64,000 nucleotides of DNA from Patescibacteria group bacterium (GTDB taxonomy: Bacteria > Patescibacteriota > Patescibacteriia > PEXW01): the NCBI GenBank assembly GCA_041671325.1, contig JBAZBR010000002.1, positions 9,978 to 73,977 of the forward strand, read 5' to 3'. The notes under the pieces were generated by a model. It searched no databases. It saw only the letters and a list, made by a program, of their open reading frames with translations, and was not told where the DNA came from. Position numbers and translations under genes: made by a program. Positions 6,189-46,285 of this stretch are shown piece after piece; the stretch's first letter is position 1, and the number at the start of each line of letters is the position of its first letter.

Positions 6189-6191
6189 TTT

Positions 6192-9224: not shown

Positions 9225-9239
9225 ATCTTAAAAAATAAT

Positions 9240-9836: not shown

Positions 9837-9844
9837 TAGCTATT

Positions 9845-10558: not shown

Positions 10559-11754
10559 AGCAGTTTAAATTACTAATCATATTTTTTTTCGCCATTGCCG
10601 CTTTTTTATTTTCCCAACCGGTAAAAGCGGCTCTGGTGAGTTGTGATGAAAACGCAAAAGATTCAAATGGCAACTACATGAATGCTGGGCAAATTGAGCT
10701 GAAATGGATCCATGTCCAATTGCCCATTCCCGGGGTTACGGCGAATTGCGTTGATGACCAAGGCAAGAGCGTGGCCTATATCCAAGACCTCGGAGCCTAT
10801 ATTGCCGGCATGTATAAGTGGTTTTCCGGCGCCATTGGCATCCTGGCCGCCGTCATGGTCATGTACGGCGGGATAAAATGGATGGTGGCCGCGGGCAACC
10901 GCAGCCGAGTCCAAGACGCCAAAGAAACGGTTTTTACCGCCCTTATCGCCGTGGTAATTGCCCTCGGTTCTTATCTCTTGCTTTTTGTCATTAACCCAAA
11001 ATTAGTCAACTTACGGCCGCCAGCCTTGAGCACGGTCAAGCCAGTTTTGCAGAGCTTTGCCATGTGCCCGACCTTTAAAATTTGCCTATCCGGAACTAAC
11101 AAAGGCCAAGCCTGCGTCTTAGACACGGCCTGCGGGGCGCCGGCTAATTCCGGCGCTTGCGACTATGCCGTGGACGTGGGGACGGATATAGAACCAACAT
11201 GCGGCAATGAATACACTTATCGGGAAAAAGCCACGGGTTCTGGCACGTGTCGTGGTTCAGTCTGCCATGATAAGGACAAAAATGTCACTAATGATGTTTG
11301 TACGCTTGGCACCTGGAAGGACTCTGTTTTTTTGCCCAAGGCAATTGGTGGGACTTCTTGGGGCTGTACATCACCCGTACGACAATGCGAATCCATTACC
11401 GATGATAACGGTTCGGCGGCAGATTGTTCGCAATTTAGCATTGCCGGAAAAGGTAAGTGTGCTTGGATAGATTATCCTATGCTTGATCCAAAATCTGATG
11501 GTTGTTATTGGTTCCCAGTGCTTGAATGCGAACAGGGATATGAACGAGTTGGGTGTGATATATGTAATAATTCCGAACCGTTTGTCATTACTCAGTGTAA
11601 TCTTCAGCGTTGTTCCGAAGGGAGACTTTCAAAATGTATTTCGACTCAAGGAGAAATAGTATATTCTAATGATCTAACCCCAGACAAAAAAAATTGTAAG
11701 TCTATTTGTTGTAGAAAAGTTGGCGATACTGACTTAAAATGTTCAGCCCAATAA
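10555..11754 (+). CDS. secreted Cys-rich protein containing a TrbC/VirB2-like T4SS-pilin hairpin (two hydrophobic helices, MYGGIKWMVAAGN motif) and a ~240-aa C-terminal domain with about 28 cysteines
   Basis: Signal peptide MKQFKLLIIFFFAIAAFLFSQPVKA. Pilin-like helix-loop-helix at aa ~78-152. Paralogous to aa 170-245 of the gene at 13696. Confidence 0.55.
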   Translation: MKQFKLLIIFFFAIAAFLFSQPVKAALVSCDENAKDSNGNYMNAGQIELKWIHVQLPIPGVTANCVDDQGKSVAYIQDLGAYIAGMYKWFSGAIGILAAVMVMYGGIKWMVAAGNRSRVQDAKETVFTALIAVVIALGSYLLLFVINPKLVNLRPPALSTVKPVLQSFAMCPTFKICLSGTNKGQACVLDTACGAPANSGACDYAVDVGTDIEPTCGNEYTYREKATGSGTCRGSVCHDKDKNVTNDVCTLGTWKDSVFLPKAIGGTSWGCTSPVRQCESITDDNGSAADCSQFSIAGKGKCAWIDYPMLDPKSDGCYWFPVLECEQGYERVGCDICNNSEPFVITQCNLQRCSEGRLSKCISTQGEIVYSNDLTPDKKNCKSICCRKVGDTDLKCSAQ

Positions 11755-11802
11755 TATAGATTTATTCCTTATCGCCTGGATTTTTAATGCTATTATGAAT
11801 AT

Positions 11803-13059
11803 ATGAACCGTCGAACCTTAGTAATCCTTGCCTTTATAATCGGGGTTATTGCCATCGGTTTTGTTTTGTATATCATGTTTTTCAAACCCTTGCCCCCAGC
11901 CGTCAACCAGAATGGCAACCTTAACACTAATTCGGTTTTGCCTAATATAAACGGCAATGTCAATCGGCCCCAAAATGTTAATGGCGGCTTGCCAAATATC
12001 AATACTGCAAATGTTAATAAGCCCACGGCTAATGTGAATGCCGGTCCGGCAGTCATTGCTGATGGCGGGGATACCCAAGTAAAGACTTTGATTTCCGCGA
12101 ATGCTTTTGACACGGTTATTGATGCCAAAGGCAATTTGCGCTACTACGATAAAGCCTCTGGCCAATTTTTCAAACTTGACGAAAACGGGAATTTAATCGC
12201 CTTGTCCCAAGTCAAGTTTCCTGAAGCCGAAGATATTGCCTGGTCGCCCAGCCGGAGCCAGGTCATAGTCAGTTTTCCGGATGATTCCAAAATCTTTTAT
12301 GATTTTGAAAATAAAAAACAGGCGACTTTGCCCAAAGAAGGCCAAGATTTCAGTTTTGATCCCACTGGCACGCAGATTGCATTCAAGTACAATGCCGCCA
12401 ATGAAGCTGACCGTTTTTTGGTGGTGTCCAGCCCAGACGGCAGTTCCATAACCCCAATTGAACCTTTGGGTGAAAACGGGAGCAGGGTCCAAGTCAACTG
12501 GTCGCCTAACAACCAAGTCATTGCCACTTATTCTCCAGGCCTGAATGATACTAGCCAGGAAGTGCTTTTAGTCGGCAAAAATGGCGAAACTTTTAAATCC
12601 ATAGCCACAGCTGGCCGGGGTTTTGAAGGCACATGGTCTTCTAATGGCCAGCAAATGTTATATAGCGTTTATAATGCCCAAACAAACTATAATCCCACTT
12701 TGTATATAGTAAATGCCCAAGGCGATGCCGCCGGTACGAATAACCGGCCTTTGGAAATTAACACCTGGTCTGACAAATGCACTTTTAACAAGGCCGGCAC
12801 CTCGATTTATTGCGCCGTGCCTGACACTTCAAGTTTACCGGCGGGCAGCGGGATTTACCGTAACCAGGCAAACAACACCACGGATTCTTTTTATTCAGTC
12901 GACCTTTTAACCGGGGCTAAGAACAAGTTAGCCGTGCCAGTTGGGTCTGATGGCAGCCGCCAGTTTTCCGCTAAAAACCTGTGGCTTTCGGCTGATGGCA
13001 GCACTTTATATTTTACCGACGGCCCCACTGGCAAGGTTTTAGAGATGAAAATCCATTAA
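11803..13059 (+). CDS. membrane-anchored PD40/TolB-like beta-propeller protein with Asn-rich linker
   Basis: N-terminal TM. Repeated WSP/WSPN/WSSNG-type propeller blades. Confidence 0.5.
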   Translation: MNRRTLVILAFIIGVIAIGFVLYIMFFKPLPPAVNQNGNLNTNSVLPNINGNVNRPQNVNGGLPNINTANVNKPTANVNAGPAVIADGGDTQVKTLISANAFDTVIDAKGNLRYYDKASGQFFKLDENGNLIALSQVKFPEAEDIAWSPSRSQVIVSFPDDSKIFYDFENKKQATLPKEGQDFSFDPTGTQIAFKYNAANEADRFLVVSSPDGSSITPIEPLGENGSRVQVNWSPNNQVIATYSPGLNDTSQEVLLVGKNGETFKSIATAGRGFEGTWSSNGQQMLYSVYNAQTNYNPTLYIVNAQGDAAGTNNRPLEINTWSDKCTFNKAGTSIYCAVPDTSSLPAGSGIYRNQANNTTDSFYSVDLLTGAKNKLAVPVGSDGSRQFSAKNLWLSADGSTLYFTDGPTGKVLEMKIH

Positions 13060-13066
13060 AACTAGT

Positions 13067-13699
13067 ATGCAAAAAAGGGAAAATATTTTTTTTCTGATCT
13101 TCGGTGGCCTAGCCGTGCTGGTTTTGGTTGTCCTAATGATAAACACTTTTAGCACGAAAAAGGTGATAAAAGATTTATCCCCAAGGATTTTCAGCACCGA
13201 TCCCTATTTAGGCAAGTCCAATGCCAAGGTTACTTTAGTCATTTTTACGGACTTTGAATGCGAATATTGCCGGGCAGAAGTGCCGATTTTAAAAAGCCTT
13301 ATGGCCAGCAATCAAAATTCCGTCAAATTGGTATATAAAGATTATCCTTTAAGCATCCACAAAAACGCCAGGCGGGCGGCGGAAATTGCCAGGTGCGCCC
13401 AAGACCAAGGCGGCGGCCAGGGAAAATTTTGGGCCATGCATGACCAATTGTTCCAGAACCAGGATACTTTGGGCGCTTTAGATTTAGAGAAAATAAGCAA
13501 AGACGTGGACATTGATTCGGCCAAATTAAAGGCTTGTTTGGACTCCCAAGCTGCGGCTAAACGCATTGATGATAATATTGCTGAAGGCCAGCGCTTGAAT
13601 GTTACGGAAACCCCGACGCTTTTTGTGAATGAAAGGCGGATTACCGGCTTGAATGAAGAATCAGTCATCCAAACTTATATTAACCATGTATTGCAATGA
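13067..13699 (+). CDS. DsbA-family thiol:disulfide oxidoreductase (thioredoxin fold, CEYC active site), membrane anchored
   Basis: FTDFECEYCRAEVP CxxC motif. DsbA-like length. N-terminal TM. Confidence 0.7.
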   Translation: MQKRENIFFLIFGGLAVLVLVVLMINTFSTKKVIKDLSPRIFSTDPYLGKSNAKVTLVIFTDFECEYCRAEVPILKSLMASNQNSVKLVYKDYPLSIHKNARRAAEIARCAQDQGGGQGKFWAMHDQLFQNQDTLGALDLEKISKDVDIDSAKLKACLDSQAAAKRIDDNIAEGQRLNVTETPTLFVNERRITGLNEESVIQTYINHVLQ

Positions 13700-15057
13700 A
13701 AGTCTTGAGGCTTTTATTTTTATCAGCATTTTTATTAACGGGACTTTTGGCATTTCCAGGTAATGGAAAAGCTGGTTGCTGCCTTTGCGGGAATTTAAAT
13801 GACGACAATTTTCAATGTCTAATAAATGTTACTGAGGCCGAGTGCAATTCTTGCGGTAATTTCCCCCATCCGTTTTATGAGACCAATGATGCCTGTACGA
13901 ATTTTTGCGCCAAGCCAGTTGATGTTAGTTTAAAAAATTGCTGTGTTTATACGGGCAAGATAGATAAATTAGTAAAGGAATGCAAAGCCGTCCAGGATGA
14001 AACTTCCTGCCAGACAGGTGAATTTGAAATTAACCGGAAAGAATATATTGCCCAGGATTGCGCCAAACAGCCCCAATGCAGTTTAATCGGATCAAAGTAT
14101 GTAGCAGAAAAAAAATCAGACATATATTTCAAGCCCCAGGTTTCTTTGCTTGGTTCAAAATTTATCGCTGGTGAGGAAATTGTCATAACCGGCAATACTT
14201 TAGGCGAATACATTGCCGCCTTTTACGTCTTTTTTGTTTCAGCAATTGCTATTTTGGCTGCGGTCATGATTATGTATGGAGGCATTAAATGGCTGGTGGC
14301 TGGCGGCAATCGTGGCCAAGTCCAAAATGCCAAAGAGCAGATTACTTCAGCGATTATCGGCTTATTAATCGCTTTTGCCGCTTATCTATTATTGCTTTCC
14401 ATCAGCCCAAAATTGGTCAAGTTTACCAGCCTGAATATAACCAGCATCAAACCAATTGAGCAGGCCATAAATAAGCAAGAAATCGCTTATGGTTCAAAGG
14501 GCAACCCCTTGGGAAAAGCTACTATGTCAAAAACTTGGTACGAAAACGTAAAAGCCAAATATGGCTCATTTGTTGCCACAGCAGCAAAAAATACCGGTAT
14601 TGATGAGAATTTAATTTACGCCATAATGTTCGTGGAATCTGGTGGGCAACCCAATTTGTCATCTGAAGCGGGCGCTTGCGGCTTAATGCAATTATTGCCG
14701 GCAACTGCCAGCCAAGTCATGAAAACCGGAGTCTCCTGTTCTGATTTATACAACCCTTCATTTGGGATTGCGGCGGGCGCGGCTTACTTGGCACAGCTTA
14801 AGGAGGATACTTGCCCTGATCATGCCATGAAAAAAGACGAGAGTATTGTTTCCTGCACGCCCAGCTTAACCAAGTGTACGGATGGCGATTTAATGTTTGT
14901 GATTGCGGCATATAACGGCGGCCAAGGGGCTAATTGCAGCAGCGTAGATTGTCCAGGCCAGACCTGGTGGGAATGTCCGGTTAATACTGGTTATCAGCAA
15001 ACCAGGGATTATGTCATAAAAGTCCAGAACAATTTGAAAATAATTAGTGATTATTAG
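13696..15057 (+). CDS. secreted fusion protein with an N-terminal Cys-rich domain, a TrbC/VirB2-like pilin hairpin, and a C-terminal SLT-type lytic transglycosylase (VirB1-like)
   Basis: Signal peptide. About 20 Cys in aa 27-135. AILAAVMIMYGGIKWLVAGGN pilin-like hairpin. SLT motifs IYAIMFVESGG and ACGLMQL. Confidence 0.65.
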   Translation: MKVLRLLFLSAFLLTGLLAFPGNGKAGCCLCGNLNDDNFQCLINVTEAECNSCGNFPHPFYETNDACTNFCAKPVDVSLKNCCVYTGKIDKLVKECKAVQDETSCQTGEFEINRKEYIAQDCAKQPQCSLIGSKYVAEKKSDIYFKPQVSLLGSKFIAGEEIVITGNTLGEYIAAFYVFFVSAIAILAAVMIMYGGIKWLVAGGNRGQVQNAKEQITSAIIGLLIAFAAYLLLLSISPKLVKFTSLNITSIKPIEQAINKQEIAYGSKGNPLGKATMSKTWYENVKAKYGSFVATAAKNTGIDENLIYAIMFVESGGQPNLSSEAGACGLMQLLPATASQVMKTGVSCSDLYNPSFGIAAGAAYLAQLKEDTCPDHAMKKDESIVSCTPSLTKCTDGDLMFVIAAYNGGQGANCSSVDCPGQTWWECPVNTGYQQTRDYVIKVQNNLKIISDY

Positions 15058-15059
15058 GC

Positions 15060-16397
15060 ATGCCAAAAATTGAAACAATTTATTCATGCTCAAACTGTGA
15101 TGCGCAATTCCCCAAGTGGCTGGGTCGCTGCCCTGAATGCGGCAGTTGGGGGACTGTGGAAGCAGCCGGGCCAAAACCCGCAGCTGCCCATCAAGCCATA
15201 AAAGGCAAGCCAGGCCAAACCCAAAATTTTGAAAGCATTTTAAGCGAGCATATCCAAAGGGTAACAAGCGGAATTGAGGAATTTGACCGGACTATTGGCG
15301 GTGGGATTGTGCCGGGTTCTTTAATTTTGCTTGGCGGTGAACCAGGCATCGGCAAATCAACCTTGGCTTTGCAAATTACTTCTGGCTTAAAAGGCCAAGT
15401 TTTGTATGTGTCTGGGGAAGAATCTGCCAACCAGGTCAAATTGAGATATGAGCGCCTGAAAATAGAAGCTTCACAGGTTAATTTCCTGCCAGCAACGGAT
15501 TTACCCACGGTCTTAGCTACTTTGGAAGCGGAAAAACCAAGTTTGGCTGTAATTGATTCTATTCAAACAGTTTTTGACCCAACCTTGCCGTCAGAAGCTG
15601 GTTCCATTGTCCAAGTCAGGGTAGCTTGCGTCAAGCTTATGGAAGTCGCCAAGCGCCTACATATCCCGCTAATTTTAATCGGCCATGTGACCAAAGAAGG
15701 TTCAATTGCCGGTCCTAGGGTCTTGGAACATTTAGTTGACTGTGTTTTGACTATGGAAGGTGATCCTTACCATGCTTATCGTTTGTTGCGCGCCACCAAG
15801 AACCGGTTTGGGCCAACTGATGAGGTGGGGGTTTTTGACATGGCAGAATCTGGCTTGGTTGAGGTTAAAAATCCTTCAGCCAGGTTTCTGGCCGAACGGG
15901 ATGCCCAGATCAGCGGTTCCAGCGTGGTGCCGATAATTGAAGGCACCCGGGTTTTTCTTTTGGAAATCCAAGCCTTGGTTTCCACCACGGTTTTTGGCTA
16001 TCCCCGCCGGGTGACTTCAGGTTTTGATTTGAATCGCTTGCAACTATTATTGGCAGTTCTAACCAAAAGATCAGGCTTGGCTTTAGGTAACCAAGACGTG
16101 CATTTAAATATTGTTGGCGGTTTTAAAGTGGATGAACCAGCCGCAGACTTGGCAGTTTGCCTGGCCGTTGCTTCGTCTTTAAGCAATAAACCCCTACCGC
16201 CGTTATTAGCTGCGGTGGGTGAAGTTGGTTTAGGCGGGGAGATCCGGAGCGTGGCGAATTTTGAACGCCGGGTTGCGGAAGTGGAAAAGCTGGGTTTTAA
16301 AACTTTAATTGCCCCCCAAAACTCAAAATCTGGCAAATCTAAAATAGAAATAATTACGGCTAGGTCAATAATTGACGCCTTAAAATTCATTAAATAA
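15060..16397 (+). CDS. radA: DNA repair protein RadA/Sms
   Basis: C4 zinc finger CSNCDAQFPKWLGRCPECGSW. Walker A GGEPGIGKST. KNRFG motif. Lon-like C-terminal domain. Confidence 0.9.
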   Translation: MPKIETIYSCSNCDAQFPKWLGRCPECGSWGTVEAAGPKPAAAHQAIKGKPGQTQNFESILSEHIQRVTSGIEEFDRTIGGGIVPGSLILLGGEPGIGKSTLALQITSGLKGQVLYVSGEESANQVKLRYERLKIEASQVNFLPATDLPTVLATLEAEKPSLAVIDSIQTVFDPTLPSEAGSIVQVRVACVKLMEVAKRLHIPLILIGHVTKEGSIAGPRVLEHLVDCVLTMEGDPYHAYRLLRATKNRFGPTDEVGVFDMAESGLVEVKNPSARFLAERDAQISGSSVVPIIEGTRVFLLEIQALVSTTVFGYPRRVTSGFDLNRLQLLLAVLTKRSGLALGNQDVHLNIVGGFKVDEPAADLAVCLAVASSLSNKPLPPLLAAVGEVGLGGEIRSVANFERRVAEVEKLGFKTLIAPQNSKSGKSKIEIITARSIIDALKFIK

Positions 16398-19750: not shown

Positions 19751-20143
19751 CTAGGTTTTTAATATGGCTTGGGCAGGGCAATTTGAGATGGCGGTTTGGA
19801 GCGCTGTTGAGCCTAAATTGTCCTCTGTTAAGACCGTTGCTTTACCCGTCCTTGGGTCTAAGGCAAAATGCTCAGGGTCAGTGCGCGTACACCTGCCGCA
19901 ACCAACGCAATTTGGGCTTATCATCAATATGGCTTCATCATCAGCATTATTGTTTGACGGTAGGTTTAGGTTGGTATTGCTTGCGCCATCATCAGACGCG
20001 TTGAGGGCTTCCTGGTTGTCTTGGTTAAGATTATTAGCGGTTTGTTGTTCTTTTTTACCAGCACAACCCGTTAAGACTATGGTGGATAAAACTGGGAATA
20101 AGACGGTTATAAAGGTTTTTTTTGTTTTATTTTTCATAAGCAT
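19751..20143 (-). CDS. lipoprotein with C-terminal single-cluster ferredoxin-like domain (CVGCGRC...CP)
   Basis: Signal peptide plus lipobox LTGC. Asn/Asp-rich linker. Fer4_13/15-like motif ISPNCVGCGRCTRTDPEHF...ISNCPAQAI. Confidence 0.5.
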   Translation of the reverse strand: MLMKNKTKKTFITVLFPVLSTIVLTGCAGKKEQQTANNLNQDNQEALNASDDGASNTNLNLPSNNNADDEAILMISPNCVGCGRCTRTDPEHFALDPRTGKATVLTEDNLGSTALQTAISNCPAQAILKT

Positions 20144-20465
20144 TTTTTTTCAGAGTTAATAAATAATACTTAATGTGCCAGCTGAAATGAAACAGCGCTA
20201 CGATGGCAAAAGCGATGCCGAATTCCACATGAACCCAAAGAAGTTTGGGATACCAAGATAACTTAAACTTTTGGTCAATACTGATGGCCAGGATCAAGCC
20301 AAACAAACCCGAAAAACCGGCAAATAAGGCCAAAATGATATTCCAGATTTTTCTGTTTCTAGACAGCTGACATCTTTTTGTTTTGACCAAAATAGTTGTG
20401 GCGAAATAAGCCAGCAAAACTAAAAGGATTATGGGTAAGGCATGATAATTGTTCATATTAATCAA
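20127..20465 (-). CDS. hypothetical small polytopic membrane protein (3 TM), likely co-transcribed with the ferredoxin-like lipoprotein
   Basis: Hydrophobic profile. 17-nt overlap with the downstream gene. Confidence 0.45.
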   Translation of the reverse strand: MINMNNYHALPIILLVLLAYFATTILVKTKRCQLSRNRKIWNIILALFAGFSGLFGLILAISIDQKFKLSWYPKLLWVHVEFGIAFAIVALFHFSWHIKYYLLTLKKNAYEK

Positions 20466-20598
20466 GAGTATTAAATCAACCTTTGTTTTTGCTTAGAATA
20501 AACTTTGTACATAAAAAATTGAAAAACCGTCGGAGGAGTTTCGGTAAATTAATTAAAATTTAATCACACGTCAATTCGAGTGGTTTTTTGGGGATGGT

Positions 20599-20868
20599 TT
20601 AAATTTCGGATTTAGTAAAATATTCTATCAGCATGGTACGTATTGTCGTTTTACCTTTTGCTGTTTTGAAGTATTTTTCCCTTCGTAGTGCATCATATTT
20701 ATTGGCATAAGCTTCAAAAAAAATTAAATCAAATGGTATACGCGGTTTTGTGGACGGAACCTTGCCTGAATTGTGCTGAATGAGTCGGTTAAATACATTA
20801 TCCGTAAAACCGATATAAAGACGTTTATCGCGCTTGCTTTGTAAAATGTAAACATAGAAATATTTCAT
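20599..20868 (-). CDS. stand-alone GIY-YIG nuclease family protein (90 aa)
   Basis: MKYFYVYILQS...LYIGFTDNVFNRLIQHN GIY-YIG motif. The ORF-track version (to 21018) reads through the tRNA; the internal Met at 20868 was chosen as start. Confidence 0.7.
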   Translation of the reverse strand: MKYFYVYILQSKRDKRLYIGFTDNVFNRLIQHNSGKVPSTKPRIPFDLIFFEAYANKYDALRREKYFKTAKGKTTIRTMLIEYFTKSEI

Positions 20869-20905
20869 AACATTTATAGTCAATGCAATGCACTGGGTGG
20901 CGGAG

Positions 20906-20927
20906 CCATGCACCGTACGGTGCATGG
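20906..20927. repeat. 20-bp perfect palindrome CATGCACCGTACGGTGCATG fused to the CCA end of tRNA-Ser(GCT). A second copy at 23039-23058 is fused to the tRNA-Ser pseudo-copy.
   Basis: Identical 20-mer at both loci, each immediately 3' of ...CTCTCCGCCA. Confidence 0.6.
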
Positions 20928-21016
20928 CGGAGAGTAGAGGATTCGAACCTCTGCGGGACTTTTTAGATCCCCGCGGTTTAGCAAACCGCTGCCTTAAGCC
21001 GCTCGGCCAACTCTCC
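20926..21016 (-). tRNA. tRNA-Ser (anticodon GCT), type II with long variable arm, CCA encoded
   Basis: GGAGAGTTGGCCGAGCGG...anticodon loop TTGCTAA...GGTTCGAATCC...ACTCTCCGCCA. Cloverleaf folds manually. Confidence 0.8.
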
Positions 21017-21159
21017 ACGGATCATCATGAACTTCACCCTTCGCATCCTCGCATTTGCGAGTTTGCTTCGGGTTTCGTTCGTGTGCTCCTCTCCCCATTG
21101 ATACCAAAGGTATCAATGGGGACCCCTAAAATAAATATTACAAAAGATTCATCCAGAAG

Positions 21160-21168
21160 TGCTATACT
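21160..21168 (+). promoter_or_regulatory. extended -10 element (TGcTATACT) 9 nt upstream of ATG of the 21178 gene, suggesting a leaderless or near-leaderless transcript
   Basis: TGnTATACT match. No SD between it and the ATG. Confidence 0.3.
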
Positions 21169-21177
21169 ATACCCAGT

Positions 21178-21681
21178 ATGGAACAGCGTACCAATGAATC
21201 CGAATCTATTCAAGACCAGATACTTTTAGAATGGGAATTCCCCTCTTTTGAAAAGCATAAACGGGGCATAGTCTGGTATTTGGTAATGCCGGTTATTTTT
21301 CTTGCGCTTTTAATTTGGACCATAATCATAAAAAATTTCCTTTTCTCAATAATCATAATCTTAATAGGGATTATCCTGGGTTCAAAAGAGTTTGTTCAGC
21401 CCCAAAGGGTAAAATTTTCAATTAAAGAATCTGGCATAATAATTGATGATAAATTTTACCGTTTTCGGGAATTTGATAAGTTTTGGATTGCCTATGAACC
21501 GCCAGAAATTAAAGTTTTGTACTTAGAATTTAAAACCGGGCTGAGGACAAATTATTCAATCCCTTTATTGGATCAAAATCCGCTTAAAGTCAGGACAATT
21601 TTGCAAAAATACATACTTGAAGATTTGGAAAGGGAAAGCGAAGATTTAACTGACCGTCTTGCCAGGCTTTTTAAGTTTTAA
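21178..21681 (+). CDS. hypothetical membrane protein (2 TM) with C-terminal soluble domain
   Basis: 167-aa ORF with ATG start. Confidence 0.5.
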   Translation: MEQRTNESESIQDQILLEWEFPSFEKHKRGIVWYLVMPVIFLALLIWTIIIKNFLFSIIIILIGIILGSKEFVQPQRVKFSIKESGIIIDDKFYRFREFDKFWIAYEPPEIKVLYLEFKTGLRTNYSIPLLDQNPLKVRTILQKYILEDLERESEDLTDRLARLFKF

Positions 21682-21829
21682 TTAACCTTGCGTGAATATT
21701 CAGGATATGGTACGAAAGTAAGGTTAGATTTTGTGCATTTATTAATTATTTACGCGCTCGTAGTCCCGTCCTCGACTTGCTAAATAAATTAAATCCCTTA
21801 AAAATCAGCATTAGAGAAAATTATTGTGC

Positions 21830-21906
21830 GCGCTCGTAGCTCAGCTGGATAGAGCGCAAGCTTGCGGAGCTTGAGGTCACAGGTTCAACTCCTGTCGAGC
21901 GCACCA
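21830..21906 (+). tRNA. tRNA-Arg (anticodon GCG as folded; anticodon assignment moderately certain), CCA encoded
   Basis: GCGCTCG-TA-GCTCAGCTGGATAGAGC-G-CAAGC-TTGCGGA-GCTTG-AGGTC-ACAGGTTCAACTCCTGT-CGAGCGC-A-CCA. Perfect acceptor and T arms. Confidence 0.7.
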
Positions 21907-22285
21907 CGCGTCAATCCTTGCGTCGGATTACGTGTGCTCATATTTATGAGCCCACTCCCCGCCTGCCTTCGCCAGACGAAGTACGGCGGACAGGCACCCT
22001 CTGCAAGGTTGCCGCTTTTCCTCATCCCGCCGTATGGCGGGACGTGCTCCTCCCCCTCGACTACGCTCGGGGTCGTGCGCGCCTCATTCGCGAGGCGTGT
22101 AAGCAGCCCGCTTACCCCAAATTTTCGATGATAATTTGGGGATCCCTTCTAATGATTTTATAAGCGTGCCGCTTTCCCCATTTCATCTTTGATGAAATGG
22201 GGATCCTAAAATTTGGAACCCTTAATAACTTAACCGCTATGTCGATTTTTCTCGCACTCAAGTTTTGCCGTGCGGAGTCATTAGT

Positions 22286-22314
22286 ATTGACAAAACAAGA
22301 AAATCCTGCTATCT
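22286..22314 (+). promoter_or_regulatory. sigma70-like promoter TTGACA-17nt-TATCTT upstream of the 22371 gene
   Basis: Hexamer and spacing match. Confidence 0.4.
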
Positions 22315-22370
22315 TTTAGCATTAACTGTAATTTCAGTAATTTTCTTTCTAACTTGATAGGAGGTCAACA

Positions 22371-22634
22371 ATGGGCTCGCAAAACGCAATGGTGGCTCTG
22401 CGTCGTGGGGAAGAGCTAGATTTAGGAGGCGTCCGAGTTAAGGCGGTTATGATCTCAGACGGAACTTTGGCCGAGGTTAAAGAGGGAGACCTATATGTTG
22501 CTGAACGCAACACTGGCCCTCATTTGCTGATAGCGGCCAAGATAGTGCCTCCTGGTCACGGAGGCTTTATTGTGCCAACAACGCCGGATTACGCTTTCGA
22601 TATCTGTGATTGCGTGGCGGTTGTCGAAGCCTAA
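22371..22634 (+). CDS. hypothetical small protein (87 aa), orphan gene with its own promoter, strong RBS (AGGAGGT) and terminator
   Basis: GGAGG 6 nt upstream of ATG. Terminator hairpin immediately downstream. Confidence 0.45.
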   Translation: MGSQNAMVALRRGEELDLGGVRVKAVMISDGTLAEVKEGDLYVAERNTGPHLLIAAKIVPPGHGGFIVPTTPDYAFDICDCVAVVEA

Positions 22635-22647
22635 CGCCCAGTCCCTA

Positions 22648-22686
22648 CCCGCCAGATTTTTTAGTCTGGCGGGTTTTCTCTTTTTA
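22648..22686 (+). terminator. rho-independent terminator (cccgccagat-tttttag-tctggcggg followed by a T-run)
   Basis: 9-bp GC stem plus TTTTCTCTTTTT. Confidence 0.6.
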
Positions 22687-22805
22687 TTTCAAGGTAAATG
22701 ATTTATCATACATTTACTGTTCACCGAATAGATTAGCCTGAGTCGGCTCTAAATTGGAGGCGTGCGAGAGTGGTTTAATCGGATGGTCTTGTCCTGCAGC
22801 GTGGC

Positions 22806-22893
22806 GGAGGGTTGGCCGAGTGGTCTATGGCGACGGTCTTGAAAACCGTTAGGGCGCAAGTCCTCGTAGGTTCGAATCCTACACCCTCCGCCA
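22806..22893 (+). tRNA. tRNA-Ser (anticodon TGA), type II, CCA encoded
   Basis: GGAGGGTTGGCCGAGTGG...CTTGAAA anticodon loop...GGTTCGAATCC...ACCCTCCGCCA. Confidence 0.85.
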
Positions 22894-22963
22894 CGAGTCG
22901 GGATCCCGCAGTCCTATATAAAAGATTTCTAAGAGCGGGAAAAACCCTGCCTGCCGGCAGGCA

Positions 22964-23040
22964 GGCGTTAGTGCGCAAGTCCTCGTAGGTTCGCCTGCCC
23001 GCCAAAGCGAAGCGTCGGCAGGAATCCCTCTCTCTCCGCC
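22964..23040 (+). pseudogene. tRNA-Ser 3'-half pseudo-copy: anticodon-stem 3' side, variable arm and T arm, with a 29-nt hairpin insertion (22993-23021) in the T-loop and an acceptor 3' end, CCA and trailer matching those of tRNA-Ser(GCT)
   Basis: 21-nt identity gcgcaagtcctcgtaggttcg with 22855-22875. The 3' end CTCTCCGCCA plus the palindrome CATGCACCGTACGGTGCATG is identical to the 3' end and trailer of the tRNA at 20926-21016. Confidence 0.5.
23004..23034 (+). repeat. direct repeat R0 (aaagcgaagcgtcggcaggaatccctctctc). Imperfect copies R1 at 23773-23827 and R2 at 24404-24446 bracket the UDG-like and lipoprotein genes.
   Basis: 26/31 identity between R0 and R1. R1 and R2 share ctgg(t/c)gc(a/g)gtaaactggc(t/a)attg(t/c)a(a/g)a(g/a)cgaagcgt. 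Confidence 0.5.
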
Positions 23041-23124
23041 ATGCACCGTACGGTGCATGACTCCGCAAGGACAATTTAGTATCGGATGACCCACGTGTCT
23101 CAAAAATTAAATTAAAAGAGATCT

Positions 23125-23691
23125 ATGAATAAAGAAATTCATAACTGTTTAAATATTCAATCAAAGCCACTTTCTTTCTTTTTTCAGAAAGGGTCGAGTA
23201 CTTTAGGCAAGAAAGTCCTTATACTTGGTGAATCTTTGGCAAGAAACGGCTGGTTAGAGTCAGGAAGGGCATTTTATAGTTTACAAAATAAGATTGTCCC
23301 AACCGGCAAACGCTTAAATGAAGAGCTATTGCTAATTCATATGACCCTTGAAGAATGTGCTTTTACAGAGATTGCAAAATGTTATATTAGTAGCAATCGA
23401 AAAAGGCTTGTAGAGTGCGGGTCTTTATGTGCTAGACACCTTCTGGAACAAATACATCACAATAAACCAAAGGTAATTTTATCCTTGGGGGTAGTTACAA
23501 AAGATATTCTGGAATCAACCTTTCAAACTAAATTACAAATGGGTAAGGCGAGTGAAGTTGTTTATAAAACCAAAAAATACTTACTTTTACCACTATTCCA
23601 CCCATCACCAGCAAACCCATTTGGGCATGCAAAAAATATCACAATAATTAATCGTAATAAAAATACACTAAAAAAATTAATTGGAGAGTAA
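23125..23691 (+). CDS. uracil-DNA glycosylase superfamily protein (family 4/5-like; motifs ILGESLARNGW and LFHPSPANP), low-GC gene
   Basis: UDG motif A/B analogues. N-terminal Cys pairs. Visibly more AT-rich than neighbouring genes. Confidence 0.45.
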   Translation: MNKEIHNCLNIQSKPLSFFFQKGSSTLGKKVLILGESLARNGWLESGRAFYSLQNKIVPTGKRLNEELLLIHMTLEECAFTEIAKCYISSNRKRLVECGSLCARHLLEQIHHNKPKVILSLGVVTKDILESTFQTKLQMGKASEVVYKTKKYLLLPLFHPSPANPFGHAKNITIINRNKNTLKKLIGE

Positions 23692-23847
23692 CCCCACGTC
23701 TCTCTTGTCTAATTTTAAACAACATAAAACCGGCTCAGCACCTGTTTTATGAAAATAAATTTTAAGCCACTGCTGGTGCAGTAAACTGGCTATTGTAAAG
23801 CGAAGCGTCGGCGGGAAGCCTTCTCTTTCAGTAACCGTAATTTAGCC

Positions 23848-23876
23848 TTGACAATAAGTCAAAATAGATTTATATT
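23848..23876 (+). promoter_or_regulatory. canonical sigma70 promoter TTGACA-17nt-TATATT upstream of the lipoprotein gene
   Basis: Perfect -35, 17-nt spacer, 5/6 -10. Confidence 0.5.
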
Positions 23877-23917
23877 TGTTTGAAAACATTTGTTCATTTT
23901 TTGACAAGGAGAAGAAC

Positions 23918-24316
23918 ATGTATCGTACGCGCGTGGCCAGCATAACGCTGGTGTTGCTGTCCGTAATGACTTTTTACGGATGTTCAATATTTCAGTCGGA
24001 TCCAATTTGGCGTTCGAATGATGGGCAAGTGTCGCTAAATATTGACAGCTTGGTGACTGCCGGGATGATCTCTGAGCAGCACCTAGCCAAGGGACTGCCC
24101 ACGGCTGACGGGATCTTTGACCAGTACAGTGTTGTACTGCCCCTTGATCGCGATGGAAACCTCAAACTAAGCATGGAAGACGTGGCATTGATTGATCGGG
24201 TTAAGGAGGCGTACGAAATTCAGGCCAAAACCATGAGGATCTACAATTGGCAAACCTGGAGAAACCAGAATGGGACAATACTGGGTGTAAGCTATTTCGT
24301 TGGCTCAAGGATCTAG
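23918..24316 (+). CDS. hypothetical lipoprotein (signal peptide plus lipobox ...TFYGC)
   Basis: RBS AAGGAGAAG upstream of ATG at 23918 (internal Met of the track ORF starting 23876). Terminator downstream. Confidence 0.5.
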   Translation: MYRTRVASITLVLLSVMTFYGCSIFQSDPIWRSNDGQVSLNIDSLVTAGMISEQHLAKGLPTADGIFDQYSVVLPLDRDGNLKLSMEDVALIDRVKEAYEIQAKTMRIYNWQTWRNQNGTILGVSYFVGSRI

Positions 24317-24336
24317 TCTTGCTTTTAAGTCAAACA

Positions 24337-24366
24337 AAAAAGCGGAGCAACAAGCCCCGCTTTTAT
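24337..24366 (+). terminator. rho-independent terminator (aaagcgg...ccccgcttt plus TTTT)
   Basis: Stem-loop followed by a T-run. Confidence 0.5.
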
Positions 24367-24512
24367 ATTGCCTGATTTATGGGTCGAAAAATTTAAACTA
24401 CTACTGGCGCGGTAAACTGGCAATTGCAGAACGAAGCGTTAAGGGGAATTTTTAAGATCCCGCCGCATGGCGGAGCTACGCCCCCTGCCATCGTTTTGCG
24501 TTTTTACTATAA

Positions 24513-25727
24513 TTACCTGGTAATAACCCTTCGGAAAGTCGGAACGGCTATGGCAATCATGACTAAGCCGAAGATGGACAAGATTAACACTTCAGTCCAA
24601 ACCGAACTTAAGCCCGCCCCCAAAACAATTACTTTGCGCAAAGCCGTGGCTTCATAAGTCAAGGGAATGGCTTTTGAGATGTATTGCATGACGTGCGGCA
24701 TTTGTTGGATGGGGAAGAAAGTGCCGGAGAGGAACATCATGGGGAATTGCAAAGTCATCATGATGCTCATGGCTGTTTCTTGGGCCGTGGCCACTGCCGA
24801 AACCAAAATACCAATGCCCATAAAGGCAAAGACGCCTAAAAATAAAAGTAAAATCATGACCAGCCAATTGCCATAAACATGCACGCCGAATATCAGGATT
24901 GCCAAGAGCAGGACAATCATGCCTTGGACCATGCCGCGGGCAGTTTGGGCAAAGGCTTTGCCTAAGATAATTGATAAGCGCGAGATTGGCGCGATCAATA
25001 AGCCATCCATCGTGCCCGATTCCTTTTCCCTGGAAACCGAAACAGCCAAGCCAGTCATAACCGACATCATAACGATTAGCGCCATAATGCCAGGAGCAAT
25101 GAACTGGAAGTAGTTAGTTTTACCCGGAATCAAATTATCAATTTTGGATTGGATGGGCTGGATGATTGTTGCCGGATCCAAATTTGCCATTTGCGGATTG
25201 ACTTTACCCGTGAGCTTGATAATCTCCCCAATCTTGGTTTCAGCAACACCGGTGGACATGCTATTGACTACCTGCTGAATCATTTGTGTCAGGATGGAAG
25301 AAATTTGCGGATTAGATTGGTCGGGGATGATGCTAATCTCGGCAGTTGTATTGTTTAGAACATTTTGGGAAAAGTCCGCTGGAATGAAAATGCCGCCATT
25401 AATTTTTTGGTCTTTTATAGCTTTTTTAATTGCTTCATTGTCAGGATAAATTTTGATGGTAAAAACTTTTTCATCGTTGGAGATTTTCATGTCTGAAAAA
25501 ACCTGGACTAAAGTTTGGCTAATTTGCCCCTGGTCCTGGTTGGCAATGCCCATGGGGATGTTTTTTAGGGAGTTTTCCGAGGGGTAAATGAAACCAGTCA
25601 TGATCATCATAAAAACCGGCATGATTATAAAGAATATTAATTGCATCCGGTCTCGGGAAAAATCAACCAAGTCTTTAGAAGCGATCCGCAAGCTGTCTTT
25701 AAGGGTCGTAAAAAAATTATTTTTCAT
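24513..25727 (-). CDS. ABC-2 family transporter permease
   Basis: 404 aa. N-terminal TM, large extracytoplasmic loop, C-terminal 5 TM bundle typical of ABC-2. Confidence 0.75.
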   Translation of the reverse strand: MKNNFFTTLKDSLRIASKDLVDFSRDRMQLIFFIIMPVFMMIMTGFIYPSENSLKNIPMGIANQDQGQISQTLVQVFSDMKISNDEKVFTIKIYPDNEAIKKAIKDQKINGGIFIPADFSQNVLNNTTAEISIIPDQSNPQISSILTQMIQQVVNSMSTGVAETKIGEIIKLTGKVNPQMANLDPATIIQPIQSKIDNLIPGKTNYFQFIAPGIMALIVMMSVMTGLAVSVSREKESGTMDGLLIAPISRLSIILGKAFAQTARGMVQGMIVLLLAILIFGVHVYGNWLVMILLLFLGVFAFMGIGILVSAVATAQETAMSIMMTLQFPMMFLSGTFFPIQQMPHVMQYISKAIPLTYEATALRKVIVLGAGLSSVWTEVLILSIFGLVMIAIAVPTFRRVITR

Positions 25728-25740
25728 ATTAAGTTAGTGG

Positions 25741-26547
25741 TTATCGGACTCGGGATTTTGCCCCAAATATATGGTCGCTAACAGAAGAAACATCTCCGTG
25801 GGTTTCTTCACGCATGTCCCGGCCAGTTAAAGCCAGGAAAACATCTTCCAAGCTGGCGTTTGGTTTCTGATTGGCTTTTTTTAGATTAGCGGGCGTGTCA
25901 ACCGCGATTATTCTGCCGTGGTCAATTATGGCGATAGTATCCGAAAGTTCATCAGCTTCAGGCATGATATGGGTGGTTAAAATCACAGTAACGCCGTGAG
26001 CATGGAGATCTTTGATAAAATCCCTAATCGAACGGGAAGTTTGCGGATCCAGGCCTAAAGTCGGTTCGTCCAGAAACATCACTTCTGGCTCGGTTAAAAG
26101 CGCCCGGGCAATATTAACCCTTTGCTTCATGCCCGTGGAAAAAGTCCCGACCATTTTATCTTGCCATTTATCCATTTCCAGGGTTGTTAACCATTTTTCC
26201 GCGCGTTCTTGAGCCGTGCTTTTGGGAATATGGTAAAGCTTGCCGAAAAATTTCAAGTTTTCTAACGCAGTCAGGCGATCATAAAGAATTATTTTTTCAG
26301 CCACCAAACCAATATGTTCTCGGACGTCGCCAGCCTGGGTTGTAATATTATGCCCGGCAACAAAGGCTTGGCCAGAAGTCGGTCGGATTAAAGTGGTTAA
26401 CATGCGAATGGTGGTGGATTTGCCCGCACCGTTCGGCCCTAAAAAACCGAAGATTTCGCCTTTTTTTACCTTGAAGCTGATGTTGTCTACAGCCGTAAAT
26501 TCTTTGAATTTTTTGGTTAAGTTGCTTACTTCAATGACGTTTTCCAT
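25741..26547 (-). CDS. ABC transporter ATP-binding protein
   Basis: Walker A GPNGAGKST. Signature/Walker B region FLDEPTLGLDP. Q-loop and H-motif present. Confidence 0.85.
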   Translation of the reverse strand: MENVIEVSNLTKKFKEFTAVDNISFKVKKGEIFGFLGPNGAGKSTTIRMLTTLIRPTSGQAFVAGHNITTQAGDVREHIGLVAEKIILYDRLTALENLKFFGKLYHIPKSTAQERAEKWLTTLEMDKWQDKMVGTFSTGMKQRVNIARALLTEPEVMFLDEPTLGLDPQTSRSIRDFIKDLHAHGVTVILTTHIMPEADELSDTIAIIDHGRIIAVDTPANLKKANQKPNASLEDVFLALTGRDMREETHGDVSSVSDHIFGAKSRVR

Positions 26548-35739: not shown

Positions 35740-38700
35740 ATGCAAAAATCTCACCTATTAAATACAAAGGTAAGAGCTTGGCTAATTATGGCCGTGGCTT
35801 TTTTTACGTTATCGGTTTTCCTGCCCAAAGCGCTTTTAGCGGCCTTGACCAGCCCTTCAATCGTCGTGGGCGGAGACCAATATGCAAATGACAGTTCATT
35901 AGGCAAGATTTCCCAAAGAAATTGGCGGAGCGAAAACCAAAAAAGCCGAAAGATTGTTTATGTTAATCCTAATGATAAGACCCCGACTTTATTTGCTGGT
36001 TACGTTAACGAAGACAGCACGGCCTGCGCGAATACGGTCGATGGCGGGGTGACAATCAAAAGATGCAGACTGGAATTTAAAATGAGCATTGACAACGGCA
36101 TGACTTGGTCCCAAGCGATTTCCAGCTCCCAAACTTGGTTAGATATCGAAGTTATTAATTCAGCCATTGATCCGACCTTAACTAATTATTCGCCTGAGTT
36201 TTCAATAATATTAAGCCCGAACAACCAAGACATTTGGGTGGCGTATAAAACATATAGCACTGATATTAATAACAATATTAGTTTTGGCCAGGAATCTCAA
36301 ATCGCTAAATTGACCTGGGATGCCAGTACCAGCAAATGGAAAATCGGGACAATAAGAAAACCGTCAGTACCAATAGCGCCAACAGTGCCGAATATTAATA
36401 CAGAAACTAATGGCTGGTGTAATTATTATTCGACTTATAGAACGTCTTTGCCAACCGTATTTGTAGAGAATTTAAGTGATGGAACGGAAAGGGTTTGGGC
36501 AATACTACAATGTTTAAGTCTTCACGGCCCAGCCCCTGCATACCATTCGCATGAATATTACCCGATTTATAATGATGATTTTTCCAATTCTAATGATTGG
36601 ACAGTGGCAAAAAGTGGAGGCTCACCGCTACAAATAGAATACGATAATTATCCTAATCCCCCTGGCACTTATGGATATGCCCCGCCAAAAATGACCTTTA
36701 TTCCCCTCGGTAGCAATAAATTGCCAAGTATTATAAGTGCAAGAGAGCAATTTGTTGCTGGGGAAAATCCTTGCGTAAAGATATTTACTAAAAATAATGA
36801 TATAAGCGCGGATAGTTGGACAGCAACCTATAAATGCGCGGTTAGTGTTGTACCGGAAAAAGATACAAAACTTTTTGATTTTTCTATTGCGGCTTACCCA
36901 ACGTCTACAGACCAGTCCCGATTTGTAGTTGCCTATGAGGGTGGATATGATGTTGCCAGTGGAGGTGCAATAAGTTATGAAAATAAAACCAGGATAAGAA
37001 GCTGTTTATTTACGAATAGTGGTACCAGTGGTTGCAAAGCCGCCATTATTAGCGGATCGAATTTTTTTACTAACGCCTATTCGCCGTCCGTGGGTTTTTT
37101 TAACAGCAAAGCGTTTATTGCTCTACGGGATTCAGGCACTGGAAATTTGATAACCAGCGAAGAAAGTGCTGATTATTCTACTTGGCCACCGGCAGATTAT
37201 ACTTGGGTAGACGCATCTTCACATTCGTCTTCAGCCACGACCCAGACTCCCAGCGTTCCAGTTTATGTTTATGACGGGAAAATAACTTTGAATTCCGGAC
37301 TCTGGCCAATTATGTGGCTTCAAACAAATAATAAAAAAGTAGTTTTCTCTGAAAACATAGGAGGCACAGTAATCGGCCCGAATTTGCCGGCTTATCCAGT
37401 GCTGGGCTGGGGCTGGTCATCAAATTTCGGCTGGTTATCCTTAAATTGCGTAAATAGAATTTCATCAGACCTAAATGTTATTCCAAATTGTAATCCTGCT
37501 TATGGCGTCGGGGTGGGGATTGCCAGTTCAAATGTTCCAGCTGGCAATGCTTTTTCCGCGCCTGATGGCTACCCTTTGGGCGGTTATGCCTGGTCATCCA
37601 ATGCTGGCCTGGTTTCTTTTGAAAGAAAAGACAGCGTTAATAGCACAAATAATCCATATGGAAACCCGGCGAACCTGCCCTATAACAATAGCGCCAATGC
37701 CAATGACCCAATTATTAAATATGATACAACTGCCCAAAAAATCCATGGCTGGGGCAGGTTTTTGAACCTTTGTAATTTTGACAATACTTCAAAATGCAAA
37801 GATAAAGAGAAAGGCTGGTTGAAAATGCAGGGCTATTGGCTAAAACCCGGAGTAAAATGTGCAATTTTTCATAATACTAATAATACTGTTACTTTTTCTA
37901 ATGCGTTTCCTGGTGGTTGTACAGATTATGCTAAATTCGATATTGGCGGCGGTATTATCGTAGTTGACGGCGATTATTATCAATATACAAGCAGAGTTAG
38001 CAATAAATTAAACGGAATTTCACCGAATATTGGCCTAGCGCCTGATGATAGGGTCGACGACATGGTTTACGCGGCAAGCGGCACTGATCCAGATGATCCC
38101 CCTGGTTGCACTGGGAGTGCGTGCAGACTCAATGGCGGCCCATACGGCGTCCAAGCTTTTTGGAACGGTTCAAATTATGAATTCAGTGGCTGGGGCTGGA
38201 GCGATGATTATGGCTGGATTGCCTTCAGGCCATTGATCTTTGTGGGCTATGCCTGGATGGAATCTTTATTCGGCAATATTTATTCAGGAGGGGCAATCAG
38301 TTTGCCCAAGCCGGAAAACAAGTCTGGCACGCCAATTATGTGCGATTACAATAACGATGGAGTGGCAGAATCAGAATGCGTGGTCAGTACTTACCGGATT
38401 GAAGCTGGCGGAAACATTTCAACTTTTAACCCGCCTGGCACTTCTTACACAACCAAACTGCCAACTTCGGGATACGGTGGAAATTTCGGACCGGAAAACC
38501 GTCTATTGGGAAATCTGGAAAATTTTTTTGATTCAAACCTTTTAACCACAGGATCAGGAAACGCAGACCTATATTCTTTAAACACTAGCGAATCGACCGT
38601 GGTTTACCGGAATGCCCTGGGCAAACTGGATTTGACTGGTTTGATCAGTTATAGTGATTCAAATCTTATTAATTATTTTTATGAAACTGATCCTTCAACT

Positions 38701-40801: not shown

Positions 40802-40804
40802 CTT

Positions 40805-42148: not shown

Positions 42149-42156
42149 AAAATTCA

Positions 42157-42759: not shown

Positions 42760-42764
42760 ATATT

Positions 42765-45670: not shown

Positions 45671-45706
45671 CCATTGATCTCATTAAATCTCCATAATCAG
45701 TAATTT

Positions 45707-46153: not shown

Positions 46154-46285
46154 TGAATTTAAAAACGTCTTTGCGGGGAAGTGCCCATGTCACTGACGAC
46201 GCAATCCCATTAAATAAAAGACCAAGTAAGTTAAACAGTGGGATTGCCACGTCGCTCCGCTCCTCGCAATGACATATAATAAACG

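Follow-up and report, generated by a model that had tools for sequence, protein, structure and literature searches.

Direct Repeats of the Array

Does a row of repeats and single genes behind a tRNA gene record the capture of mobile cargo, or rearrangement of the tRNA gene beside a resident neighbour? The question is raised by an array in chromosomal DNA of a Patescibacteria group bacterium, a member of the Candidate Phyla Radiation (CPR), in which three direct repeats (R0, R1 and R2) lie downstream of a tRNA-Ser gene and bracket a gene of the uracil-DNA glycosylase (UDG) superfamily and a gene for a small signal-peptide protein. The window, meaning the whole stretch analysed, is 64,000 nucleotides (nt) long and corresponds to positions 9,978-73,977 on the forward strand of contig JBAZBR010000002.1 (GCA_041671325.1); feature coordinates are relative to it. 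L-numbers (L001 and so on) denote DNA loci fetched from relatives, together with viral contig stretches (L049-L095). The repeats derive from the 3′ end of a tRNA, and tentatively suggest decayed scars of serial recombination at tRNA-Ser, with the UDG gene as a resident. GC3 below is the GC content at third codon positions, and aa stands for amino acids. The array consists of the following features:

23004-23036, + strand: R0, the right half of an insert in the T-loop of a pseudo-tRNA plus a tRNA-like 3′ end, 88% identical to 23797-23829
23125-23691, + strand: UDG-superfamily gene, 188 aa, divergent family-4-like, GC 0.337, GC3 0.270
23741-23829, + strand: R1, a composite repeat with its left ~70 nt common with R2 and its right 33 nt common with R0
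23848-23876, + strand: near-consensus sigma-70 promoter TTGACA-17-TATATT (11/12)
23918-24316, + strand: signal-peptide (putative lipoprotein) gene, 132 aa, dockerin/EF-hand-like DRDGN motif, GC3 0.586
24338-24364, + strand: hairpin at the 3′ end of the 132-aa gene, terminator-like, 11-pair stem, scored on the - strand
24371-24448, + strand: R2, the most diverged copy, which retains the left arm and has a more decayed core

R0, R1 and R2 are genuine, non-chance direct repeats bracketing two genes. A repeat search aligned 23757-23817 with 24388-24448 (R1 and R2) over 61 nt without gaps at 77% identity, and 23004-23036 with 23797-23829 (R0 and R1) over 33 nt at 88% identity; the 47 and 29 matches observed compare with maxima of 40 and 25, respectively, in 30 dinucleotide shuffles of positions 20000-26000. 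In a gapped alignment, the homology of R1 and R2 stretches left to 23741 and 24371, directly behind the 3′ ends of both genes. The core sequences of the repeats are AAGCGAAGCGTCGGCRGGAA and CTGGYGCRGTAAACTGGCWATTG. The direct overlap of R0 and R2 is CGAAGCGT only, which is not significant, and the three repeats are therefore connected only via the composite R1. A preliminary description of this locus, made from the sequence, had all three repeats sharing motifs, which stands for R0-R1 and R1-R2, each better than all shuffles, and falls for R0-R2. The order R0-UDG-R1-132-aa gene-R2, with the repeats delimiting two single-gene units, was confirmed.

Other identities for the repeats were considered and rejected. 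A dispersed family of the repetitive extragenic palindromic or miniature inverted-repeat transposable element type is not supported, as the repeats occupy only three places in the window and none in the related or viral loci searched. Folding either strand of R1 and R2 gave z-scores of -0.3 to +1.2, with no stable hairpin and no common structure (R1 -0.3 and R2 +0.5, with differing predicted structures), and Rfam gave no match for the repeats even at E<=5, which dismisses an attC-like or structured-RNA reading of R1 and R2. The R arms bear no likeness to the UDG flanks of 11 relatives and were thereby rejected as native 3′ flank of the UDG gene.

Several smaller elements adjoin the repeats. 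A GC-rich hairpin, ATCCCGCCGYATGGCGG, follows R2 at 24457-24473 and has a second copy at 22024-22040. A promoter-like site, CTGCCA-17-TATAAT (10/12, 24485-24513), lies 36 nt past R2 and faces the convergent permease gene, pointing into its 3′ end; a further unit may have left it as a relic. The UDG open reading frame (ORF) is flanked by CCCACGTGTCTC (23089-23100) and CCCACGTCTCTC (23693-23704), a 12-nt near-repeat that was discarded, being about what chance would give by a rough estimate and not seen in relatives.

tRNA-Ser Fragments Upstream of the Array

The repeats derive from a tRNA 3′ end, as is apparent from the row of tRNA-Ser debris in which R0 is embedded:

22756-22791, + strand: 5′ half of a tRNA-Ser, starting with the acceptor GGAGGCG and stopping in the anticodon loop (...CTTG); 14 nt separate it from the intact tRNA-Ser(TGA) downstream
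22806-22893, + strand: intact tRNA-Ser(TGA) (ARAGORN; Rfam RF00005, 60.5 bits)
22946-22965: perfect 20-nt palindrome CCTGCCTGCCGGCAGGCAGG, present also in L019 and L022
22966-23041, + strand: 3′ part of a chimeric pseudo-tRNA-Ser, comprising the variable arm and 5′ T-arm side, an insert, AATCC, a foreign acceptor 3′ strand and CCA

A 22-nt stretch of the 5′ half is 100% identical to the tRNA-Ser(TGA) of L020 and 95% identical to the tRNA-Ser(GGA) of L010. The intact tRNA-Ser(TGA) is followed by a 72-nt spacer containing the palindrome, after which the pseudo-tRNA starts (22966) with the 3′ strand of the anticodon stem. Its first 28 nt (22966-22993) are a copy of 22847-22874 in tRNA-Ser(TGA) at 96%, a 29-nt insert (22994-23022) is placed after GGTTCG in the T-loop, and its final 17-20 nt match exactly the tails of the L017 tRNA-Ser(CGA) and the L043 tRNA-Ser(GGA). 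The repeated tRNA 3′ portion consists of 28 nt at 96% followed by the 3′ end of another tRNA-Ser type and does not make a clean attL/attR pair, with R1 and R2 further diverged; likeness to tRNA falls with distance, R0 being still recognisably tRNA-like, R1 less so and R2 least. The pseudo-tRNA was not called as a tRNA by ARAGORN or Rfam. The breakpoints in this debris field are the anticodon loop, where the 5′ half ends, the anticodon stem, where the 3′ fragment starts, and the T-loop, which holds the insert; we take the anticodon loop and T-loop to be the classical attachment (att) positions.

The palindrome at 22946-22965 was also followed beyond the window. Sites of CCTGCCTRCCGGCAGGCAGG occur in L022 (2281-2301 and 2335-2356) and L019 (570-591 and 2269-2290), and a further 56 sites were found in 47 IMG/VR viral contig stretches (L049-L095) with GC contents of 0.33-0.70. 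Some of these lie inside tRNA genes, including the extra arm of a tRNA-Met in L079 and the D-loop of a tRNA fragment in L090, with a similar case in L051. No exact copy was present among 50,697 cultured phage genomes, and plasmid matches were at chance level. The idea of a unique universal element was dropped given these phage and plasmid results and the GC-rich hairpin convergence that may explain part of the viral signal.

A second trace of rearrangement connects the pseudo-tRNA with another serine tRNA gene upstream, tRNA-Ser(GCT), and with the nuclease gene beside it:

20599-20871, - strand: GIY-YIG nuclease gene, 90 aa, GC 0.326, PF01541 at 8.5e-16, directly downstream of tRNA-Ser(GCT)
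20900-20944: 3′ end of tRNA-Ser(GCT) with trailer hairpin CATGCACCGTACGGTGCATG, an inverted copy of 23022-23066

The inverted repeat is 45 nt long and 89% complementary, and its trailer hairpin occurs in two exact copies where none is expected. Its arms enclose 2.1 kb carrying a 167-aa ORF, a tRNA-Arg gene, an 87-aa ORF and tRNA-Ser(TGA), and recombination between them could invert this segment. The 167-aa ORF (21178-21681) has a weak, sub-threshold match to DUF5673. Small GIY-YIG genes (~80-90 aa) recur in this context, with one adjoining tRNA-Ser in L023 (2219-2530, - strand), apparently interrupted by a stop, and another in L090 (553-816) where a tRNA fragment breaks off in its anticodon loop; the second GIY-YIG gene of the window (57582-57827, + strand) has no tRNA nearby.

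UDG Gene and Its Linkage to tRNA-Ser

The protein encoded between R0 and R1 is by its sequence a member of the UDG superfamily and a divergent relative of family 4. It matches PF03167 at 8e-12 (45.8 bits against a cut-off of 24.3), and its best solved relatives are the family 4 UDGs 4zbx (1.9e-13), 1ui0 and 1vk2; it misses the NCBIfam family-4 cut-offs, with 40 against 125 bits for TIGR00758 and 39 against 250 bits for NF040953. The motifs GES(L/P)A and HPSPANP, presumably of family 4 type, are conserved. A word-indexed search returned 66 homologues, the best at 72% identity, and all of those with a named source are from CPR bacteria. No relatives were found in the IMG/VR viral contigs, and a phage origin for the gene was rejected on this ground.

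The UDG gene was described beforehand as conspicuously AT-rich compared to its neighbours, and its GC3 of 0.270 is indeed the lowest among 50 window ORFs, for which mean GC is 0.428 and mean GC3 0.442 (GC3 standard deviation 0.08); nearly as AT-rich are the GIY-YIG gene, the NUDIX gene and the ORFs at 21178-21681 and 20127-20465. The GC3 of UDG is below that of its neighbours in L010 as well (6001-6567; 0.40 vs 0.59-0.76), in L017 (1858-2412) and in L019 (4001-4561), and the UDG of L037 (4001-4513) has an overall GC of 0.30 vs 0.41 for its neighbours; in L013, the UDG is not more AT-rich than its neighbours. That the gene is AT-richer in several hosts leaves room for horizontal exchange within CPR, and its AT-richness could reflect either such exchange or a gene-specific codon bias.

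The position of the gene is conserved. Of the 24 loci with enough flank, 16 have a co-oriented tRNA-Ser no more than 3 kb upstream of UDG; these are the window (22806-23691), L010, L011, L013, L017-L020, L022, L025, L026, L032, L033, L035, L036 and L043. The chance expectation is ~0.2 loci by our own estimate, which assumes five tRNA-Ser genes per ~1-Mb genome. The linked tRNA-Ser genes have the anticodon TGA, CGA or GGA, and the linkage persists down to 37% UDG protein identity, with varying genes between and beyond the two partners, among which HD, NUDIX, DNA-alkylation repair and DnaG genes recur. The UDG-flanking genes in relatives are housekeeping genes. The synteny tRNA-Ser(GGA)-UDG-...-DnaG is common to L010 and L019, which argues for vertical descent of UDG there; between these two loci UDG is 56% and DnaG 35% identical, a difference that does not decide on horizontal transfer because the two genes evolve at different rates. 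No promoter was detected between tRNA-Ser(TGA) and UDG in the window. A linkage between this CPR UDG family and tRNA-Ser was not met in the literature on related topics, in searches none of which was aimed at the linkage. The earlier proposal of UDG as horizontally acquired cargo is not supported, given the conservation of the tRNA-Ser-UDG order in 16 of 24 CPR loci.

Copies of tRNA-Ser tails are likewise recurrent, being located 100-260 nt downstream of tRNA-Ser in L010, L017, L020, L022, L026 and L033 (6 of 21 tRNA-Ser genes, vs 1 of 15 other tRNAs). Each tail copy matches the tRNA of its own genome, while spacer segments are common to different genomes; in relatives the copies are always between the tRNA and UDG and never after UDG, and no repeats flank UDG in the relatives' loci examined. 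In L017 (1380-1838), a duplicate of the opening 72 nt of tRNA-Ser(CGA), 100% identical, lies 204 nt upstream of it, joined behind the T-loop sequence GGGTTCG to 66 nt of inserted DNA; this insert, together with the tRNA tail, recurs downstream just before UDG, forming an 86-nt direct repeat (95%) that flanks tRNA-Ser(CGA). Two compensatory pair changes leave the T-arm of the L020 fragment perfect, and L025 and L026 have an intact tandem tRNA-Ser(TGA)-tRNA-Ser(CGA) upstream of UDG. With tail copies recurring in six related CPR loci, a recombination hotspot at tRNA-Ser is supported, and tRNA genes, tRNA-Ser particularly, are rearrangement hotspots in these CPR genomes. Of the suggestion that the array holds cargo captured at a tRNA-proximal hotspot, the hotspot is thereby upheld by the row of tRNA-Ser debris and the tail copies in relatives, and the UDG is not demonstrably cargo.

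A different tRNA is involved in L004 (3016-3938), which has two tandem tRNA-Asn genes and a third tail fragment beside the orthologous permease gene, with long direct repeats on either side (76 nt at 88%, plus further blocks).

Signal-Peptide Gene between R1 and R2

The 132-aa gene forms a unit of its own between R1 and R2. Its promoter, singled out in the preliminary description as a rarity in the window, is one of 4 sites in the window, both strands counted, that score at least 11/12, and the hairpin behind the gene is followed on the + strand by TTTTAT (read by eye) and looks like a two-way terminator. The protein has a signal peptide and a cysteine, with an imperfect lipobox (FYGC). With a GC3 of 0.586, the second-highest in the window, the gene contrasts with UDG, and the heterogeneous composition proposed for the array is borne out (0.27 vs 0.59).

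A word-indexed search with the 132-aa protein returned only itself, and an exhaustive HMMER search of 1.84 billion representatives brought up six remote relatives, so that it belongs to a very rare family and is not an ORFan. The homologue in L047 (137-544) is a stand-alone unit with a TTGACA-17-TATAGT promoter and a terminator, without R-like repeats. The 132-aa gene is a better candidate than UDG for a lineage-specific insertion. The protein and its few relatives also have in common W-x-S-x-DG...LP(L/I)DRD(G/K)(N/D), which resembles dockerin or EF-hand calcium loops and is matched by two large repeat proteins as well.

Origin of the Array

The explanation we tentatively prefer, with a probability of roughly 0.45, is that the R units are decayed att-type scars of serial recombination at the T-loop/3′ region of tRNA-Ser, with UDG as a resident and the R1-R2 unit as a surviving insertion. 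R0, R1 and R2 would be progressively diverged copies of a ~35-70-nt unit composed of a flanking arm and the tRNA-Ser sequence from T-loop to 3′ end, a duplicated attachment-site sequence of the type left by site-specific recombination into a tRNA gene. Successive insertions at this region would each have left a displaced tRNA tail, and decay would afterwards have erased the recombinase genes together with most of what had been inserted. The most plausible survivor among the insertions would be the promoter-gene-terminator unit between R1 and R2, and UDG would be a long-standing neighbour of tRNA-Ser that came to be bracketed by repeats only in the present lineage. We infer both a site-specific recombinase as the cause and the order of events. 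In support of this explanation, the repeats outdo every shuffle and are tRNA-derived, the breakpoints fall at att positions, tail copies recur at tRNA-Ser in relatives, the second gene is self-contained and of a very rare family, synteny with relatives ends at R2, and the two bracketed genes are opposite GC3 outliers, at 0.27 and 0.59 vs a mean of 0.44.

A number of observations weigh against serial site-specific recombination. A scan of the window ORFs other than three very large ones (301-4620, 7326-9224 and 35740-39666) revealed no integrase, recombinase or transposase family, in agreement with the initial observation that the window has no integrase; among 97 flank ORFs of 19 related UDG loci, no integrase family occurred in two or more loci. 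The R motifs are at no further site in the 64-kb window, and R1/R2 copies are absent from the 40+ related loci and viral contigs searched. R1 and R2 are 77% identical rather than near-identical, the R0 fragment is chimeric and no clean copy of the neighbouring tRNA tail, and the supposed elements measure just 0.6-0.8 kb. An extension of the R0-R1 homology into the right flank, which would have made R1 attP-like, was rejected because 41% of shuffles score equally. The conserved position of UDG beside tRNA-Ser means, furthermore, that at least one of the two units is no simple insertion.

The main rival, which we rate as somewhat less probable, is that the array arose independently of an integrase: tandem tRNA-Ser paralogues and GC-rich hairpins would have recombined through homology or microhomology and served as partners for template switching, leaving the bracketed genes as bystanders; the universal T-loop sequence GGTTCGAATCC might then serve as the microhomology, and breaks made by tRNA-adjacent GIY-YIG nucleases might be the trigger. 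Such a process needs no integrase, and none was seen in the scanned window ORFs or recurring in the relatives' flanks. The intact tandem tRNA-Ser genes kept before UDG in L025 and L026 indicate that the window fragments could be decayed paralogues, and the compensated T-arm of the L020 fragment fits a former functional paralogue. Also in its favour are the pseudo-tRNA itself, in which two tRNA-Ser types are joined in the T-loop, the perfect 72-nt duplicate of the tRNA 5′ part in L017, the 45-nt inverted copy that connects tRNA-Ser(GCT) with the pseudo-tRNA end, and the siting of GIY-YIG genes, right against tRNA-Ser in the window and in L023 and against a tRNA fragment in L090. Copies that bracket two unrelated, compositionally opposite genes 0.6-0.8 kb apart are, however, hard to explain in this way; there is no trace of a decayed UDG duplicate between R1 and R2, and the 90-aa GIY-YIG proteins, putative nucleases, are without a DNA-binding domain. 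Unlikely is a working system of cassette capture, in which the R sequences are sites for a recombinase encoded elsewhere, both genes are mobile and UDG habitually travels as a passenger directed to tRNA-Ser. The layout R-gene-R-gene-R, the low GC3 of UDG relative to its neighbours in the window, L010, L017 and L019 (and its low overall GC in L037), and its place beside tRNA-Ser of three different anticodons would fit, but the tail copies of relatives are solely upstream of UDG with no repeats around it, the tRNA-Ser(GGA)-UDG-...-DnaG synteny is common to L010 and L019, and UDG relatives are absent from viral contigs. R1 and R2 moreover have no attC-like fold and no other copies in the DNA searched, and the second unit departs from typical cassettes in bringing its own promoter. 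The label cassette-like, applied to the array at the outset, was overstated in light of the missing hairpins, the missing copies in the other loci searched and the promoter and terminator of this unit, and the array is not integron-like.

Comparably improbable is a small-scale gene capture on tRNA-Ser particular to CPR bacteria, by which an unrecognised enzyme recombines T-loop/3′-end sites, namely the R units and the tail copies of at least six other genomes, and inserts or exchanges single genes. The activity could come from a recombinase encoded elsewhere or from breaks made by the tRNA-adjacent mini GIY-YIG nucleases, and UDG as a habitual mobile passenger would explain its linkage to three tRNA-Ser anticodons. 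The slightest probability falls to functional cis elements kept by selection, whether protein-binding sites, 3′ untranslated region or processing signals, or tRNA-like decoys on a tRNA-Ser-UDG transcript. R1 and R2 do each start behind a gene's 3′ end and ahead of a promoter-like site (23848-23876 and 24485-24513), tail copies follow the sequence of their own tRNA across genomes, and co-transcription is possible, as the tRNA-UDG interval yielded no promoter. Against this, the folding z-scores of R1 and R2 (-0.3 and +0.5) come with different structures and no Rfam match, the R arms are conserved in none of the relatives' UDG flanks, and the promoter spacing is unequal, with 18 nt after R1 vs 36 nt after R2.

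The array is an example of tRNA genes acting as hotspots of rearrangement even where, as in CPR bacteria, genomes are tiny and poor in integrases, and it cautions against reading each repeat-bracketed gene as cargo. More interesting than the array are the strong linkage of tRNA-Ser with a CPR-specific UDG family and the repeated appearance, in several CPR lineages, of tRNA-Ser tail copies joined at the T-loop; should active targeting lie behind them, this would hint at a way of exchanging genes in CPR bacteria that has gone unrecognised.

Genomic Setting

The UDG protein and its neighbours are present on three near-identical Patescibacteria group bacterium assemblies (L001-L003) at 99.9% identity, and the nearest genomes found via the ABC permease are Patescibacteria metagenome-assembled genomes at 70-76% protein identity. 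For presence or absence of the units among close relatives, only these near-identical strains came up, the next relatives being too distant. Beyond the permease, gene order differs in relatives, with synteny stopping exactly at R2 and the permease stop; synteny through the permease was set aside as a test for cassettes, as relatives diverge immediately past this gene and the comparison is uninformative on cassettes. The gene content of the window also includes a type IV secretion-like cluster, RadA, RecG, ClpB, type IV pilus genes and a DNA ligase. The region is flanked by the secretion-like cluster (PrgI, type IV secretion system pilins and SLT; 4836-16397) and the type IV pilus cluster (39671-58743), neither of which has a relaxase or integrase.

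GC-rich hairpin repeats are located downstream of tRNA-Arg (21907-22210), with further ones at 24457-24490; those at 22100-22145 and 22161-22206 are 72% identical and both end in GGGGATCC. Between tRNA-Arg and tRNA-Ser (22287-22674), a TTGACA-17-TATCTT promoter with extended TG precedes the 87-aa ORF and a 12-pair terminator, making a self-contained unit. The ORF is the sole member of its 90% cluster, has no Pfam or NCBIfam match, and with a GC of 0.527 is the highest in the window.

Comparison with Known Systems

The bracketed UDG is similar to family 4 UDGs in its match to the Pfam superfamily and in its closest structures, which are of family 4. It differs in lying far under the NCBIfam cut-offs, and in that its source-named homologues are all from CPR bacteria.

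Integron cassettes end in attC sites, imperfect palindromes that fold to a stable one-strand hairpin, are mostly promoterless, and are found with an adjacent intI gene, attI site and cassette promoter Pc. The single-gene units of the window, each followed by a ~60-70-nt repeat, resemble this layout. Unlike integrons, the window has no intI (among the ORFs scanned), attI or Pc; its tRNA-derived repeats are neither imperfect palindromes nor stably folded, and one unit has a strong promoter (11/12) and its own terminator.

Williams is said to have sorted, in 2002, integration into tRNA genes (tDNA) by sublocation class, namely anticodon loop, T-loop and 3′ end. The attL/attR scars of integrative elements in tDNA agree with the array in the succession of an intact tRNA and partial 3′ copies, in the breakpoints at anticodon loop and T-loop, and in the atypical composition of the DNA between. 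Fragments of tRNA genes are described as a recognised product of element integration (PMC9897764). The window differs from such scars in having no integrase in the ORFs scanned and inserted segments below 1 kb; the fragment closest to the tRNA fuses two tRNA-Ser types and carries 29 nt inserted in its T-loop, and the bracketed UDG is a conserved tRNA neighbour and no island gene.

Tandem accretion of islands, for which the Asn tDNA hotspots in Klebsiella serve as the comparison case (PMC4891358), and integrase-less, att-flanked remnants like the cis-mobilizable element (CIME) are on a scale of tens of kilobases, whereas the window array measures hundreds of bases with repeats that are 77-88% identical, and its mobility is putative. 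In common with such remnants, the window has serial att-like repeats downstream of one tRNA, a similarity to tRNA that decays with distance, and no recombinase between the repeats. The array is a lineage-specific case of a known phenomenon, the accumulation of tRNA-fragment repeats at a tDNA hotspot.

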